Shown in pieces: positions 10,859 through 17,230 of a stretch of DNA of 27,216 nt. This stretch comes from a virus (Duplodnaviria; Heunggongvirae; Uroviricota; Caudoviricetes), in IMG/VR virus record IMGVR_UViG_2711768034_000009, positions 1-27,216 of that record; one strand, given 5' to 3'. A model generated the notes under the pieces. That model was not told the DNA's origin. It worked only from the letters and a program-made list of their open reading frames with translations, and searched no databases. How positions within the stretch are numbered: the stretch's first letter is position 1; each line of letters starts with the position of its first letter. Position numbers and translations under genes: made by a program.

Positions 10859-12253
10859 ATGGCAATTGTTAATATTAACGTGTCGGTGACGAATCCGCCG
10901 AAGCCCTCGCAGTTGTTAAAGTCCGGGGCGATGATTTCTATGGGCGGCACGACGCTGAATGCCGGTGAATATCAGCTGCTGACCAGTGAAACCGACCTGG
11001 CCGACATCCTCGCACCGGCGAAAACCATCTCGACGCTCGCCTGGGATACTGGCGTGGTAACCGTCACGCTGGCTGCCGCTCACGGATGGACTAACGGGTC
11101 ACAGGTCCCGGTGATTATCTCCGGATCGACTCCGGCGGGGTACAATGGCGCCTATACCGCTACGGTGACAGGTACCAACACCTTCACCTATCCGCTGACG
11201 ACCAACCCCGGCACCGCAACGGCAATGGGTACGGTAAAAACGGTAGTACAGACCGAAATTTCCCAGATGAATACCTCGTTCTGGGCCCAGGGGAAGACGC
11301 GGGCAGTTTATGTGCTGGAACTGGGTGATGTGTCCATGGAGGCAGCTGTCGCAGCGCTGACAACCTTCATTGCTGAAGACGTCTCCCTGGGTAACACCTA
11401 CCAGAAGTTTTTCTCCTATCTGGTGCCGCGCGAATGGGATTCGGTCGATGAATTTAAAACCCTGACCAGCCTCTATACTTCGCCGGGAAGTCTGGTTTAC
11501 TTCTTTGTCACCACAACGATCGCGACCTATCAGGATTGGGTCGCGACGAAAAACAAAACTGTCTTTGCCGGCGTCGAGGCTCCGGATATTCCGGCGAGCG
11601 AGTTTTCCATGGCCGGCCCGTTCCAGTCGTCCCTGGCAAACGACCCGGGGTCGAGCAACATGGTGCCGCCGATGTCGTACCGCTTTATGTACGGCCTGAC
11701 TGAGTACCCGCTGGAAGGCAACAGCGCACTGCTGAAATCGCTTCAGGACAGCAACATCAACTACATCGGCACCGGCGCCGAAGGTGGACTCAGCAATAAA
11801 GTGCTGTTCACCGGCCGCATGCTCGATGGTAACCCGTTCAACTACTGGTATTCGGTGGCGTGGACGGCGATCAACCTTGAGCTCGACCTGGCGAATGAAA
11901 TCATCAACGGCTCCAACACGACCGTTAACCCGCTGTACTACGAGCAGAAGGGCATTGACCGCCTGCAGCGTCGTGCTCTGAAAACCTTGCGTAATGGCAT
12001 CAGCTACGGGCTGATCCTCGGTCGTGTCATTGACACGCAACTGACGCAAGAAGATTTCAACACCGAGTATGACAAAGGCACTTACGCCGGCAACGCCGTG
12101 ATCAACGCCGTGCCGTTCAGTAACTACAACAGCCTGAACCCCTCCGATTATCAGGAAGGCAAATATAACGGGCTGAGCGCCGTCATGACGCCGCGCCGCG
12201 GCTTCGAATCCATCACGTTTAACGTGAACGTAACGAACTTTGTAGGGGCGTAA
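10859..12253 (+). CDS. Putative tail sheath protein
   Basis: 464-aa ORF with a GGAG ribosome-binding site, immediately upstream of a 145-aa tube-like gene, the chaperone and the tape measure (canonical contractile-tail order). It contains the inserted roughly 60-aa module shared with two other virion proteins. Confidence 0.6.
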   Translation: MAIVNINVSVTNPPKPSQLLKSGAMISMGGTTLNAGEYQLLTSETDLADILAPAKTISTLAWDTGVVTVTLAAAHGWTNGSQVPVIISGSTPAGYNGAYTATVTGTNTFTYPLTTNPGTATAMGTVKTVVQTEISQMNTSFWAQGKTRAVYVLELGDVSMEAAVAALTTFIAEDVSLGNTYQKFFSYLVPREWDSVDEFKTLTSLYTSPGSLVYFFVTTTIATYQDWVATKNKTVFAGVEAPDIPASEFSMAGPFQSSLANDPGSSNMVPPMSYRFMYGLTEYPLEGNSALLKSLQDSNINYIGTGAEGGLSNKVLFTGRMLDGNPFNYWYSVAWTAINLELDLANEIINGSNTTVNPLYYEQKGIDRLQRRALKTLRNGISYGLILGRVIDTQLTQEDFNTEYDKGTYAGNAVINAVPFSNYNSLNPSDYQEGKYNGLSAVMTPRRGFESITFNVNVTNFVGA

Positions 12254-12256
12254 AAA

Positions 12257-12694
12257 ATGGCGAACCCATTAGTACCGCAGGGCTTCCTTAACCGCGTACG
12301 CGGGGCTCTTTCCGTCACGGACACACCGGCGCTGAACGTTTCGGCGTCGTACCTGGCAAAGGACGGCATTAGCCTGCGTCCGGATGGCCCGGCGACCGAC
12401 ATCATCCCTACGATGACCGGAACCGTCGGCAGCCAGGCGCCGTATCAGCAGGTAACGCTGACCGTGCATCTCCTGAAAACTCAGGGGCTGGGCGAAAGCT
12501 ACCGGCAACGCTTTTTAACCGACACGTCGCTGGGTGAAATCGTGGTAACGCCGGATGCAACGACGTTCGGCAATATCACGCTGCTCAACTGCTATCTGGT
12601 CAACTTCAACGAGCTGGCTTTCAGCGGGATGGACCCGGCTTTTGTGGTAACCATCAGCGGCTATATGGTCACCAACGACAACATGTGGGTGTAA
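12257..12694 (+). CDS. Putative tail tube protein
   Basis: 145-aa ORF directly after the sheath gene. Assigned by size and position. Confidence 0.55.
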   Translation: MANPLVPQGFLNRVRGALSVTDTPALNVSASYLAKDGISLRPDGPATDIIPTMTGTVGSQAPYQQVTLTVHLLKTQGLGESYRQRFLTDTSLGEIVVTPDATTFGNITLLNCYLVNFNELAFSGMDPAFVVTISGYMVTNDNMWV

Positions 12695-12697
12695 TGC

Positions 12698-13270
12698 ATG
12701 AAAATTGACAAGAAACTGAATCTGGTCACCAACGTTACCCGCGAAGACGGCTCGATCGTATACCTGCATGTGACGCCATTCCCCTATGAGGTGGTGGAAG
12801 AACACTGCATCCTGCTGGGGAACCTGTTCACAAAATTCATCTCGCAGGTGGGTGGTCTTGGCGCCGCCAGAATCGCCGCGATGATGCTGAGGCAGAGCCT
12901 GAAAGCGGAAATCGATAACGGTCGGACAGGTCCGAACATCGTTGATGAAATTCAGCGACTGACGGTCGTTATCCATAACGTCGGCGGCCAGTGGAAAACC
13001 ACGCCTCTTGAGGTGGCATTCAAGCAGGGGATTATCGACCCTGATGAGTATCGCGAGGTCGAAGGCGAAGTGGTTTTTTTTATGGTTTCCTCTGCTATTC
13101 AGAAGGCAAACCTGATCGCGCCGACCGTGGGAACGGTGATCAAAATGTACGATGGGCAACTAACCTCATCGAGCGGTACGGCGTTCCGCGATTCGTTGCA
13201 GACGTCGAAGCCGGATACCGATACCCCGACCCAGAATGCCCAGCCGGAAACGTCATTTATACCCTCTTAG
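12698..13270 (+). CDS. Tail assembly chaperone, 0-frame product (lambda G / P2 E analogue)
   Basis: 190-aa ORF immediately upstream of the tape measure gene. It contains the slippery heptamer T_TTT_TTT in the 0 frame at 13075-13081. Confidence 0.6.
   Translation: MKIDKKLNLVTNVTREDGSIVYLHVTPFPYEVVEEHCILLGNLFTKFISQVGGLGAARIAAMMLRQSLKAEIDNGRTGPNIVDEIQRLTVVIHNVGGQWKTTPLEVAFKQGIIDPDEYREVEGEVVFFMVSSAIQKANLIAPTVGTVIKMYDGQLTSSSGTAFRDSLQTSKPDTDTPTQNAQPETSFIPS
13075..13081 (+). other. Candidate -1 programmed ribosomal frameshift site (slippery heptamer U_UUU_UUU)
   Basis: 0-frame codons are GTT TTT TTT ATG. The heptamer fits X_XXY_YYZ and lies 63 codons before the 0-frame stop. Confidence 0.5.
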
Positions 13271-13404
13271 ACTGGGCGTCTAATGAGGGTTTCTGGCAGG
13301 TGATAAGGGAGATCACCGGCGAGGAGTATGCAAGCCCGGCGCAGTACCGGCAGCGCTACCTACTCGCCGCGCTCAAAGAAAGAGGTTTCTTCAATGGTAG
13401 CTAA
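13081..13404 (+). CDS. -1 frame extension of the tail assembly chaperone (GT / E+E'-like product, joined to 12698..13081)
   Basis: The -1 frame is open for 108 codons from the slip site to TAA at 13402-13404 (YGFLCYSEGKPDRADRGNGDQNVRWATN...KERGFFNGS) and has no listed ORF. It ends just inside the tape measure start. Confidence 0.45.
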   Translation, partial: YGFLCYSEGKPDRADRGNGDQNVRWATNLIERYGVPRFVADVEAGYRYPDPECPAGNVIYTLLDWASNEGFWQVIREITGEEYASPAQYRQRYLLAALKERGFFNGS

Positions 13405-15211
13405 GTCGATCGTCGACATTGACGTAAATGACGACAAGTTTGTCGCGTTTATGGAAAGGTTTCGCGAGTACCAGAGCGCGCTGGATGATTTACCGGAAGC
13501 CTGGCGAGTGGCTGCCGTTGGTATTGGTGAAAGCAGCAAGCAGACCGAAAAAGCCAAAGGTGAGGCGAAGGAGTTAGGCGCGGAGTTTAATGCCGTGGCC
13601 GAGGCCATCCTGACCATCAACAGCGGTATCGATCGGCTCAATACCAACCTGGAAGACTCGAAGAAAAAGCAGGACGAATTCAACAAAAGCACCCGATCTG
13701 CGAAGGGCTTCCTCAGCGATGCGACGAAAGACGCTAAATCGCTGGCAGGGCATATCAAGGAAGCGACGGCCAGCCTTCTGTCCTGGGGTGGTATTGTCGG
13801 GATATTTACCGGCGTCCTTGGCGTTGGCGGCCTGTTTGGCATCAACCGCCTGGCTGCCACCACCGGTGCCCAGCGGTTTACTTCTCTCGGGCTTGGGACG
13901 AGTATCGGCGCACTTGATTCCACCGCCATAAACTACCAGAAAGCGCTGGGTAATCCGGCGGGGACGCTGGGCGCTATCCGCGATTCCCAGATGGACCTGT
14001 CGAAGCGCTGGACGTTTCAGGCGATGGGGATTAACAATCCCGACCAGGACCCTGCCAAACTGCTCCCGCAGATGATCCGTAATGCGCGCGATATTTTCGT
14101 GCAGAGCGGCAGCACGCTGCAGGGCGCACAGGCGCACGGCCTGACAAACTTCTTTACGCTGGACGACCTGAACCGCTTCAAAAACATGAGCGATGAGGAG
14201 ATCACCGCCATGGAGAAGCGCGCGCAGCAGGATGCGCGTATGTTGCAAATTACCGACCAGCAGGCGCGTCAGTGGCAGGATTTTAACGTCCAGCTCGATT
14301 ACAGCAGCCAGAGCATCAGAAACACGTTTGTGCGCGGCCTGGGTCCTCTCACACCTCAACTGAGAAAACTGTCTGATGCGCTGTCAGGCGCGATCGATAC
14401 CGTCCTGAAATCCCCCGAACTCGGCAAGTGGATTGATGCGCTTGCCGGCGGCATTGAGCGATTCGGTAATTACCTCGCTTCTCCTGAATTTTCCACAGAT
14501 GTAAGCAACTTTATGGACAAAGTAGAGAAAATGGGAAATCTAATTGGCAAGGTTATTGATTGGGTAACAGGGAAAGCGAGTATCTCTACTGCGGATATAT
14601 CATCCGGGTCAACGATGTTGAGCCCAAGCACCATCATCGATCCGAAAACGGGAAAATCCTATACTCCTGGAAGCAATGATGACCCGCATGTATGGGGCTG
14701 GCTCAAGGGTGTTAGGCGCTTCTTTGAAGATGGAACCGTTAAAGCTGTTGATCCCACACCTGCAAATACTTCCGACAGAAACAGGACTATTGCAGATCGA
14801 TTTAATAATCCGGGAAATCTGCGGTGGGCTGAAGGATACAGCAGCGAGAATACGAGAAGCGGTAAATTTGCCGTCTTCCCAACGCTGGATGAAGGCGTAC
14901 TGGCGGCGACAAAGCAACTTCAAATGTATGGCGCTAAAGGAATAAATACGGTAGGAGATATTGCAAGAAAATGGGCTCCTCCTAAGGAAAATAATACCGC
15001 TGAGTATATTCGGCATGTGGTTAAAACTACTGGATTTAATGAGAATCAGAAACTGAATCTCAATGATCCTCAGGTTATCGCGAAACTCATTTCTGCTATA
15101 TCTCAAAAAGAAGGGGCTGGTAGCAGAGTTTCTGAGAGCACAGTCATTCAGATCTATAACAATACCGGTGGGAATGCAGTGGTAACTTCAGCGCAATTGG
15201 GGGCGAGGTAA
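13394..15211 (+). CDS. Tail tape measure protein
   Basis: The ATG at 13394 follows AAAGAGG; the ORF track's 13328 start is an upstream extension. It has a helical N-terminal half and a Gly-rich hydrophobic segment (GGIVGIFTGVLGVGGLFGI). The 3' portion from about 14440 has markedly lower GC. Confidence 0.6.
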   Translation: MVAKSIVDIDVNDDKFVAFMERFREYQSALDDLPEAWRVAAVGIGESSKQTEKAKGEAKELGAEFNAVAEAILTINSGIDRLNTNLEDSKKKQDEFNKSTRSAKGFLSDATKDAKSLAGHIKEATASLLSWGGIVGIFTGVLGVGGLFGINRLAATTGAQRFTSLGLGTSIGALDSTAINYQKALGNPAGTLGAIRDSQMDLSKRWTFQAMGINNPDQDPAKLLPQMIRNARDIFVQSGSTLQGAQAHGLTNFFTLDDLNRFKNMSDEEITAMEKRAQQDARMLQITDQQARQWQDFNVQLDYSSQSIRNTFVRGLGPLTPQLRKLSDALSGAIDTVLKSPELGKWIDALAGGIERFGNYLASPEFSTDVSNFMDKVEKMGNLIGKVIDWVTGKASISTADISSGSTMLSPSTIIDPKTGKSYTPGSNDDPHVWGWLKGVRRFFEDGTVKAVDPTPANTSDRNRTIADRFNNPGNLRWAEGYSSENTRSGKFAVFPTLDEGVLAATKQLQMYGAKGINTVGDIARKWAPPKENNTAEYIRHVVKTTGFNENQKLNLNDPQVIAKLISAISQKEGAGSRVSESTVIQIYNNTGGNAVVTSAQLGAR

Positions 15212-15921: not shown

Positions 15922-16196
15922 CAACCCAGAATTATCCGTTTACCGGCAATGATCGTCAAAGCATGACATTTACACCGATCCTTGATGGCACCGTCTATAA
16001 CTGCCAGGTTAAATGGAACATTGCCGGGCTGAGGTGGTATGTCCTCATTACAGATGGCTCTGGGAATACCATTCTAAATACCCCGCTCGTTGGCTCCGAG
16101 CTTAACGGTGGAATAAATATTATCTCCGGAGTGTTTAATTCGTCCTCCATGTACTGGCGCGAACAGAATGGACTGATTGAGGTAAACAGTTCATGA
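15918..16196 (+). CDS. Hypothetical small tail / baseplate protein
   Basis: 92-aa ORF coupled by ATGA overlaps on both sides. Confidence 0.35.
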   Translation: MTTQNYPFTGNDRQSMTFTPILDGTVYNCQVKWNIAGLRWYVLITDGSGNTILNTPLVGSELNGGINIISGVFNSSSMYWREQNGLIEVNSS

Positions 16197-17230
16197 GATA
16201 TTATGATATTGAGATAACCATTCCTGCTGAAGGTGCCTCTCCGGAAAGAACGATAAAATACAGTAGCCATAAGAACGGAGTTTACAACCCCGGCGCCCTG
16301 ATGATTGAGTTTGATATCCTCAGGTACGGTGAATCGACTCCCCAGGGCGAAACTCACCTGACCATCTGGGGTATTGGCCCAAAAGAAATGCAGCAGGCTC
16401 GCCAGAATTTTTTTGGCAAAAAAATTAAAATATTCCTTGGGATGAAAGACGGGCTGCCATTGGCTGGCAAGGTTACCGCACCAAAACTGGTATTGGATGG
16501 CGTGATAAATCAGGTCTTTGGTAACTGGCAGGGTATTGAGTTACGACTTGACTTCATAATCGTGGTTGGTCCTGTCCAGAACGTGCCAAATAACAAACCC
16601 GTACCCCTTCCTTTAACCTTTGACTGGAAGGAGGGGCAGAAGCTTTCTGTAGCCCTCACGCAGTGTTTTATGAACATCAGAGGGTATACGTTCAATATCA
16701 ACATAAGCGACCGGCTAATCCTTAATCATTACCGGGGACTGTTTTGTGATGACATTGTCACCCTGGCCAAGGACCTTAATGCTTTTTCACGTTCCAGAAT
16801 TCGCGATAGCGGGTACTCTGGTGTAGAGATCGCAATAGTGAATGGTAATGAGATCCGGGTATGGGATAACGATTATGATAACCACCCGGATAAGACTTCT
16901 GTTTCCAGCGCCGTAGCCAGAAGCAACAGCCCAACCCAAATAGATTTCAAGGATTTGATAGGGCAGCCGACATGGGTGGCATTTAACACAATCAGCATGG
17001 CGTGCGTAATGCGCGGTGATATTCAGGTTGGCGATCACATCCTGATGCCTAAAAAAAGCACTCCGTTGATACAGGCCTCTTCGTACTCTCAGTATCGAGA
17101 AGACTCTGCCTTTACTGGCGACTTTATTGTGAACTCCGTTCGCCTGTTAGGGAATAGCAGGCAACCAACGGCAGAGGCATGGGTAACAATTATTGAGGCT
17201 TCCCCTTTCATTAAGGCAGGTAGTGCATGA
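16193..17230 (+). CDS. Putative baseplate hub protein (P2 gpD / Mu gp44-like position)
   Basis: 345-aa ORF between the tape measure region and the spike-like gene. Assigned by position and size only. Confidence 0.4.
   Translation: MRYYDIEITIPAEGASPERTIKYSSHKNGVYNPGALMIEFDILRYGESTPQGETHLTIWGIGPKEMQQARQNFFGKKIKIFLGMKDGLPLAGKVTAPKLVLDGVINQVFGNWQGIELRLDFIIVVGPVQNVPNNKPVPLPLTFDWKEGQKLSVALTQCFMNIRGYTFNINISDRLILNHYRGLFCDDIVTLAKDLNAFSRSRIRDSGYSGVEIAIVNGNEIRVWDNDYDNHPDKTSVSSAVARSNSPTQIDFKDLIGQPTWVAFNTISMACVMRGDIQVGDHILMPKKSTPLIQASSYSQYREDSAFTGDFIVNSVRLLGNSRQPTAEAWVTIIEASPFIKAGSA

Follow-up and report, generated by a model that had tools for sequence, protein, structure and literature searches.

A conserved slippery heptamer and a probable programmed -1 frameshift in the putative tail chaperone gene of a temperate contractile-tailed phage

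The putative chaperone gene and its slip site

We analyzed a stretch of DNA of 27,216 nucleotides (the window; IMG/VR virus record IMGVR_UViG_2711768034_000009, positions 1 to 27,216), which belongs to a temperate contractile-tailed phage or prophage of the Caudoviricetes. The genes of its tail module follow the order sheath, tube, an open reading frame (ORF) encoding 190 amino acids, and tape measure, and the same order was found in every homologous locus inspected. The subject of this work is the 190-residue ORF (12698-13270, plus strand, running from ATG to TAG), a putative tail assembly chaperone gene. Several lines of sequence evidence, presented below, argue that it contains a real and very probably functional frameshift of the lambda G/GT kind.

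At about two-thirds of its length, the gene carries the sequence GAA GTG GTT TTT TTT ATG, encoding E V V F F M. This sequence contains the slippery heptamer T_TTT_TTT at 13075-13081 (plus strand), which is in phase with the gene, the P-site TTT occupying 13076-13078 and the A-site TTT 13079-13081. Its position in the 0 frame of the gene immediately upstream of the tape measure gene is the one named in the original prediction, which had been made from the DNA letters and their translations. The run of T's is eight nucleotides long (T8, 13074-13081), and the next base is always A. The -1 frame contains a stop codon at 13045-13047 and is then open from 13048 to a TAA at 13402-13404, while the +1 frame is closed and full of stops. 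Following a -1 slip, the first new codon would be TAT at 13081, and the 108 codons originally counted up to 13404 consist of 107 sense codons and the TAA. This -1 extension (13081-13404, plus strand), which we refer to as the T-like arm, corresponds to 12.3 kDa. It terminates 11 nucleotides inside the tape measure gene, whose ATG is located at 13394, and has no ORF of its own in the ORF listing, both as predicted.

Two products are predicted from this arrangement. The short, G-like product has 190 residues and a mass of 20.9 kDa. The long, GT-like product, described by join(12698..13081, 13081..13404) on the plus strand, would comprise 128 + 107 = 235 residues with a mass of 26.6 kDa. Its junction reads ...VFF/YGFLCYSEG..., so that the earlier ...EVVFF/YGFLCY... 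and all of the coordinates given with it were correct. The predicted junction peptide of the long form is EVEGEVVFFYGFLCYSEGKPDR, and the predicted peptide of the short form is EVEGEVVFFMVSSAIQK.

The slip site lies 62 codons (186 nucleotides) upstream of the 0-frame stop, and this distance varies between 53 and 76 codons across the homologue family. Due to this spacing, the two products share only residues 1-128, and about one third of the short protein would be replaced in the long form, rather than extended. The 186 nucleotides between slip site and stop form a dual-coding overlap (13082-13267, plus strand), which encodes residues 129-190 of both the short and the long product.

To assess how often such an open frame arises by chance, we considered 7,964 codon positions in the 24 long plus-strand ORFs of the window. 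The median open run of the -1 frame was 11 codons, with a 95th percentile of 72. Of the 32 in-phase XXXYYYZ heptamers in these 24 ORFs, the T_TTT_TTT at 13075-13081 alone has an open -1 run of more than 52 codons downstream of it.

Conservation of the site and coding in both frames

A tblastn search with the 190-residue protein against a phage collection retrieved homologues from Yersinia (66% identity), Pantoea (52%), E. coli Rac-SA53 (35%), Actinobacillus (33%) and a 'Shewanella' phage (28%). In all five groups, TTTTTTT was found aligned and in phase, with the -1 frame open to the tape measure start. Further loci were collected from IMG/VR (80), genomes (4), prophages (10, with a GC content of 52-61%, found via a protein search that started from the most distant homologue) and an E. 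coli chromosome (1). The heptamer occupies the same aligned position in 103 of 103 loci, as TTTTTTT in 101 and as TTTTTTC in the remaining two, and the -1 frame runs to the tape measure start in every one of them. The original prediction had expected homologous chaperones to keep both the slippery site and the extended -1 frame, as they do. The hosts of these loci range from Klebsiella, E. coli, Yersinia and Pantoea to Burkholderia-type prophages, with protein identities down to ~25%. One of the two peptide patterns used to scan IMG/VR contained 'FF', which introduces some pre-selection into that set; this does not apply to the loci found by tblastn, in the genomes (with an N-terminal pattern only) or through the protein search.

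The site is also the only one of its kind in the overlap: no other in-phase XXXYYYZ heptamer is present there in 93 loci (the window and L001-L092), and none was seen in the ten further prophage loci. Many loci contain a -1 frame stop 6 nucleotides upstream of the heptamer, which makes an earlier shift impossible in those loci. At the protein level, an alignment of 101 diverse homologues (24-98% identity) shows no variation at F127 and F128. The TTT TTT pair is kept in prophages of 55-61% GC that prefer TTC, one of which (L098) contains 3 TTT and 23 TTC codons. Judged from the aligned sequences, the heptamer is under selection at the nucleotide level.

A few of the records merit a separate remark. 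'Shewanella phage vB_Sb_QDWS' (L008, OK094664) and 'Hujiaoplasma phage zrk29-1' (OP650936) are both 47,902 bp long and gave identical matches, and their chaperone is 94% identical to proteins of Burkholderia prophages; the host assignments of both records look doubtful. A 4.4-kb contig binned as a Thaumarchaeota metagenome-assembled genome (L092, JAGWHB010000021.1) bears the chaperone-frameshift module and is probably a mis-binned contig of a bacterial phage or prophage. Finally, a contig from JGI 3300075493 (L107) contains a homologue at 1201-1896 amid many very short gene calls, without a clear tube or tape measure gene. The heptamer and a 98-codon -1 arm are intact in this contig, and the short calls probably stem from fragmented calling on error-rich sequence.

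We then examined the -1 frame as a protein-coding sequence. In tblastn comparisons, all 107 residues of the extension align, with an identity of 73-75% for the Yersinia phages and 40% for Pantoea phage PdC23, a conservation equal to or better than that of the 0-frame protein. An alignment of 18 reconstructed fusions revealed three invariant residues in the -1 part (G162, L191 and F199) and five near-invariant ones (Y129, F166, G198, R218 and R220). The extension also has a weak match to phrog_14324.

The variability of the three codon positions was measured as entropy in 33 thinned enterobacterial sequences, aligned without gaps. Upstream of the slip site, the wobble at third positions is that of an ordinary gene in the 0 frame, with entropies of 0.45, 0.32 and 1.27 for positions 1, 2 and 3. 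From the 0-frame stop to the ATG of the tape measure gene (13271-13393), the wobble follows the -1 frame, with values of 0.25-0.28, 0.11-0.21 and 0.89-0.92. The 0 frame, now that of the tape measure gene, resumes only after 13404 (0.12, 0.00 and 0.84). The codon periodicity that had been proposed as a check on the prediction is therefore present in the -1 frame across 13271-13393. Within the 186-nucleotide overlap, the 0-frame values are 0.21, 0.44 and 0.54. The collapse of the third-position peak from 1.27 upstream to 0.54 in the overlap is what constraint on both frames should produce. A 0-frame periodicity persists over the first third of the overlap (13082-13144) and the remainder leans to the -1 frame, and the two translations of the overlap differ little in conservation from the parts coded in a single frame. 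Conservation and periodicity together indicate that the -1 frame is coding.

Neighboring genes, protein models and annotation

The tail module of the window is 95-96% identical to those of the Klebsiella phages vB_Kpn_Chronis, RothC and RothD. A 1.2-kb segment comprising the tube and chaperone genes shows 99.9% identity to a prophage in an E. coli chromosome, and related copies are present in 44 of 5,426 complete E. coli genomes. Among the three phages, RothD represents the recently proposed family Felixviridae (genus Nakavirus) as its type phage (PMC12629751).

The flanking tail genes all lie on the plus strand. The tail sheath gene (10859-12253) matches phrog_205 'tail sheath' with an E value of 4e-51, and the tail tube gene (12257-12694) matches phrog_6566. 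In the KlebPhaCol paper, the conserved structural module of RothD includes an assigned tail tube protein (PMC12629751); by count of the genes in the RothD record, the gene at the tail tube position is gp14. The putative chaperone gene itself matches phrog_11810 'unknown function' over its full length (E value of 8e-88), and its equivalents are RothD gp15 and Chronis gp13. The tape measure gene (13394-15211, plus strand) encodes a C-terminal lytic transglycosylase domain and matches phrog_7694, phrog_2276 and phrog_873, and its homologues match PF01464 SLT.

The tape measure ATG at 13394 is invariant in 33 of 33 thinned relatives and is preceded by AAGAGG. An alternative start at the ATG at 13328 was rejected, as only 4 of the 33 relatives have an ATG there and 13328-13393 shows -1 periodicity. 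The equivalent of this ATG serves as the tape measure start in the ORF finder output and in the Chronis record, where the annotated start of gp14 is probably 22 codons too early. An antisense ORF of 214 amino acids (12515-13159, minus strand) lies opposite the chaperone gene, and nothing marks it as a gene.

The AlphaFold2 model of the short form reached a predicted local distance difference test score (pLDDT) of 83.7 and a predicted template modelling score of 0.80. F127 and F128 are located in the middle of a helix formed by residues 115-134; residues 129-172 are structured, and only residues 173-190 are disordered. The 0-frame tail that follows the T run contains three invariant residues (S166, L167 and P189) and is confidently modelled to residue 172. 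As the slip falls inside the structured part of the model, the long form would replace part of the fold instead of being a simple extension of it. The -1 arm, modelled from a four-sequence alignment, gave a pLDDT of 53.8 and is unusable beyond the statement that it is probably helical. The short product ends, after a disordered tail rich in Ser, Thr, Pro and Gln, with a conserved [IV]-P-[SV] at residues 188-190 (13259-13267), and P189 is invariant from Klebsiella to Burkholderia-type homologues. This end looks, from its sequence, like a short C-terminal docking motif.

No frameshift is annotated in the GenBank, RefSeq/PGAP or PHROG records of the gene, and RefSeq/PGAP labels it 'hypothetical protein', without a join. 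RothD gp15, which is 98% identical to the ORF of the window and occupies the same position, is a Felixviridae core gene that the KlebPhaCol paper reported as unassignable, without Phold or Foldseek annotation, and the frameshift is not mentioned there (PMC12629751). Among 5.8 billion database proteins, we found only five partial calls at contig ends that match the extension, and neither a natural fusion nor a separate T-arm protein. The expectation that an ORF finder would miss the longer product thus held well beyond the ORF listing of the window. As the second frame has no start and the slip is 186 nucleotides removed from the stop, the long product escapes gene callers and PGAP as well as those frameshift predictors that are tuned to short distances.

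Two other homopolymer regions of the window were noted. The first, T7-GGC-A7 at 16408-16424, lies inside the ORF at 16193-17230 (..QNFFGKKIKIF..) with TTTTTTT in phase; it was rejected as a second recoding site, the -1 frame closing after 4 codons. The second is an A9 run at 799-807 (region 786-833) inside the plus-strand ORF at 644-1385, just upstream of a large terminase-like ORF. Two copies of a perfect 12-nucleotide palindrome, TGCGAATTCGCA, flank it, and the encoded protein repeats ANSQK. The run is also found in RothD (609-617), and its -1 frame closes after 16 codons. One possibility for this region is a site of packaging or terminase recognition within a small-terminase-like gene; another is a run prone to slippage.

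Mechanism, alternatives and comparison with known chaperones

Pairs of the lambda and P2 type are characterized by two products in a fixed ratio, each required for tail assembly and neither present in virions, with the G part binding to the tape measure protein and the T part to the tube protein. For the gene described here, we estimate at about 85% the probability that a programmed -1 ribosomal frameshift on U_UUU_UUU yields the 190- and 235-residue proteins. Most ribosomes would read through to produce the 190-residue protein. A minority would slip back by one nucleotide at U_UUU_UUU (13075-13081), with tRNA-Phe in both the P site and the A site; the two tRNAs could re-pair perfectly in the -1 frame, and the 107 codons up to the TAA at 13402-13404 would be translated. 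If the gene works as lambda G/GT and P2 E/E+E' do, the tape measure protein would be bound by the N-terminal part common to both products, the tube protein would be recruited by the arm encoded in the -1 frame, and the proportion of the two products would follow from a fixed frequency of slipping. The synteny, the heptamer in 103 loci, the conserved start-less extension and the codon-position variation all agree with the unannotated -1 programmed frameshift that was originally proposed.

Several observations weigh against this interpretation, and they concern both the signal and the protein. A downstream stimulatory structure, which the original prediction had suggested looking for in 13082-13140, did not materialize: the folds of 13082-13160 and 13082-13130 are no better than those of shuffled sequences (z = -0.29 and -0.96), and the folds of seven homologues gave mixed z values, from -1.76 to +2.28. 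RNAalifold found no conserved structure in 21 diverse sequences (-0.35 kcal/mol, with only 4 pairs), and Rfam returned no match. Upstream of the site, GAGG or AAGG motifs are present at -13/-14 or -20 in most loci and absent in three (L006, L008 and L095), and these purine-rich motifs double as Glu and Gly codons. The signal appears unlike those of the dnaX type, which are stimulated by a downstream hairpin or pseudoknot and/or a Shine-Dalgarno-like element at a fixed spacing. In the same fold test, lambda and P2 showed no structure either (z = +1.62 and -0.28). As for the protein, neither that of the window nor its 101 homologues matched any Pfam family, the chaperone families included. Comparison by hhalign gave probabilities of 0.2% with P2 gpE and 0.1% with lambda gpG, a profile search of the PDB matched no PDB sequence, and BFVD yielded sub-threshold matches only, to proteins named as chaperones. 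As no sequence or fold similarity to known chaperones was found, it is the position and architecture of the gene that suggest its chaperone role. Lastly, the slip-to-stop distance of 186 nucleotides is atypical for tail chaperone frameshifts, whose mean is 26 nucleotides in 2,397 SEA-PHAGES chaperones and 36 nucleotides in the 28 phages of Xu et al. (PMC10885494).

U_UUU_UUU is a recognized, only moderately shifty -1 site in E. coli (PMC5009743), which fits a long form of low ratio and low abundance. With no RNA stimulator apparently needed, the efficiency of the shift is probably a few per cent.

The only serious rival, which we consider improbable, is transcriptional slippage, where RNA polymerase would add one U on the T8 run and the mRNA would read V-F-F-Y-G... 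continuously. The product would be identical, and the run is T8 in 92 of 93 loci, which also counts against a ribosomal origin of the shift. Slippage is known to occur on homopolymeric runs of A or T, and enterobacterial genes contain UUUUUUU less often than expected (PMC5009743). The site is such a run, and no RNA stimulator for ribosomes was found at it. On the other hand, the exceptions shorten the homopolymer yet keep the ribosomal heptamer: Pantoea phage PdC23 has T7, and the two Paraburkholderia-type loci with TTTTTTC (L096 and L104) have six T's, still a valid X_XXY_YYZ site. Moreover, the chaperone shifts of lambda and P2, which likewise lack a predicted structure in our test, are ribosomal (PMC5009743). 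We infer that ribosomes rather than RNA polymerase slip at this site.

Far less probable is the absence of any recoding, with the -1 ORF being either untranslated or a separate small gene with its own start. RothC and RothD indeed annotate a 34-residue 'hypothetical protein' here (RothD gp16), a 105-nucleotide ORF at 13109-13213 that begins with a GTG preceded by GAGG and equals window 13300-13404, the last third of the -1 extension. This GTG, at codon 74, is the only possible start codon in the extension of the window, and most homologues lack it. No ATG, GTG or TTG occurs anywhere in five of the 18 homologous extensions examined, for which reason independent initiation was rejected. Furthermore, conservation begins at the slip site and the -1 periodicity is seen from 13271, well upstream of the GTG, and selection on the nucleotides of the heptamer would be unaccounted for by a separate gene. 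On this sequence evidence, RothD gp16 is spurious as a gene of its own and forms part of the gp15 gene. Least credible of all is an artefact, in which one ORF would have been split by an error in sequencing the homopolymer or by the decay of a prophage pseudogene: homopolymers are error-prone and many copies are prophages, but error and decay are excluded by a run length that is the same in more than 90 independent assemblies and isolated phages, by a 0-frame tail after the run that is conserved and confidently modelled, and by the viability of the plaque-forming RothD, Chronis and Yersinia phages (PMC12629751, PMC9224151).

If a programmed ribosomal frameshift operates here, it would provide a correct gene model and a function for a core gene of the newly proposed Felixviridae, whose like are carried as prophages by Klebsiella, E. 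coli, Salmonella, Yersinia and related gut bacteria, and it would expose a blind spot of automatic annotation. The long conserved dual-coding overlap offers a clean natural case of two protein modules sharing DNA. More tentatively, and with odds somewhat below even, the gene may encode a 'branch-point' rather than an 'extension' chaperone, in which a shared module of 128 residues is followed by separate conserved C-terminal modules. These may be the 62 residues ending in [IV]-P-[SV] in one product and the 107-residue helical arm in the other, with complementary constraint in the 186 nucleotides. If the C-terminal module of the short form must be absent from the long form, recoding would switch domains instead of adding one, and a candidate function for the short-form module would be self-association along the tape measure protein. 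The chaperone family concerned, conserved in prophages from Enterobacterales through to Burkholderiales, would then have a fold unlike that of any characterized chaperone.

We compared this gene with the known frameshifted chaperones, measuring lambda and P2 directly from their annotated records (NC_001895 for P2). Phage Mu was uninformative as a comparator, since its gp41 has no in-phase heptamer and its longer open alternative frame toward the tape measure gene is the +1 frame. The SEA-PHAGES and Xu-Hendrix-Duda chaperones display the same two-ORF recoding signature between the major tail and tape measure genes (PMC10885494; PMC5009743). According to the PRFect paper, its predictor mostly missed sites with a much larger slip-to-stop distance (>30 nucleotides in the Xu chaperones and >51 nucleotides in a set of eukaryotic viral frameshifts; PMC10885494).

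Lambda G has a short product of 140 residues and the heptamer G_GGA_AAG, with the stop 5 codons after the slip and an extension of 144 codons that reaches 8 nucleotides into the tape measure gene. As in the window, the gene lies directly upstream of the tape measure gene and has an in-phase X_XXY_YYZ, a start-less -1 extension and no predicted stimulator. However, lambda is a siphovirus, whereas the phage of the window has a sheath; the heptamers differ, and there is no detectable sequence similarity. Lambda GT also contains essentially all of G, unlike the long form described here, which would lack the last third of the short form. P2, like the phage of the window, is contractile-tailed and temperate, shares the order sheath, tube, chaperone and tape measure, and has a U-rich heptamer (T_TTT_TTG) read by tRNA-Phe. 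The short product of P2 E has 91 residues, the stop follows 6 codons after the slip, and the extension of 57 codons ends 8 nucleotides into the tape measure gene, as that of the window (T_TTT_TTT, 190 residues, 107 codons) ends 11 nucleotides into it; again, there is no sequence similarity.

The gene therefore shares with this class its position, the in-phase heptamer, the start-less -1 ORF ending at the tape measure start, and conservation among diverged homologues. The G/GT and E/E+E' arrangement invoked by the original prediction holds in its logic and departs in the placement of the slip, which lies close to the gene's 3' terminus in lambda and P2 (5 and 6 codons before the stop) and 62 codons before it here. 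The proposed mechanism is an ordinary one, and it is the slip-to-stop distance and the dual-coding overlap that are unusually long.

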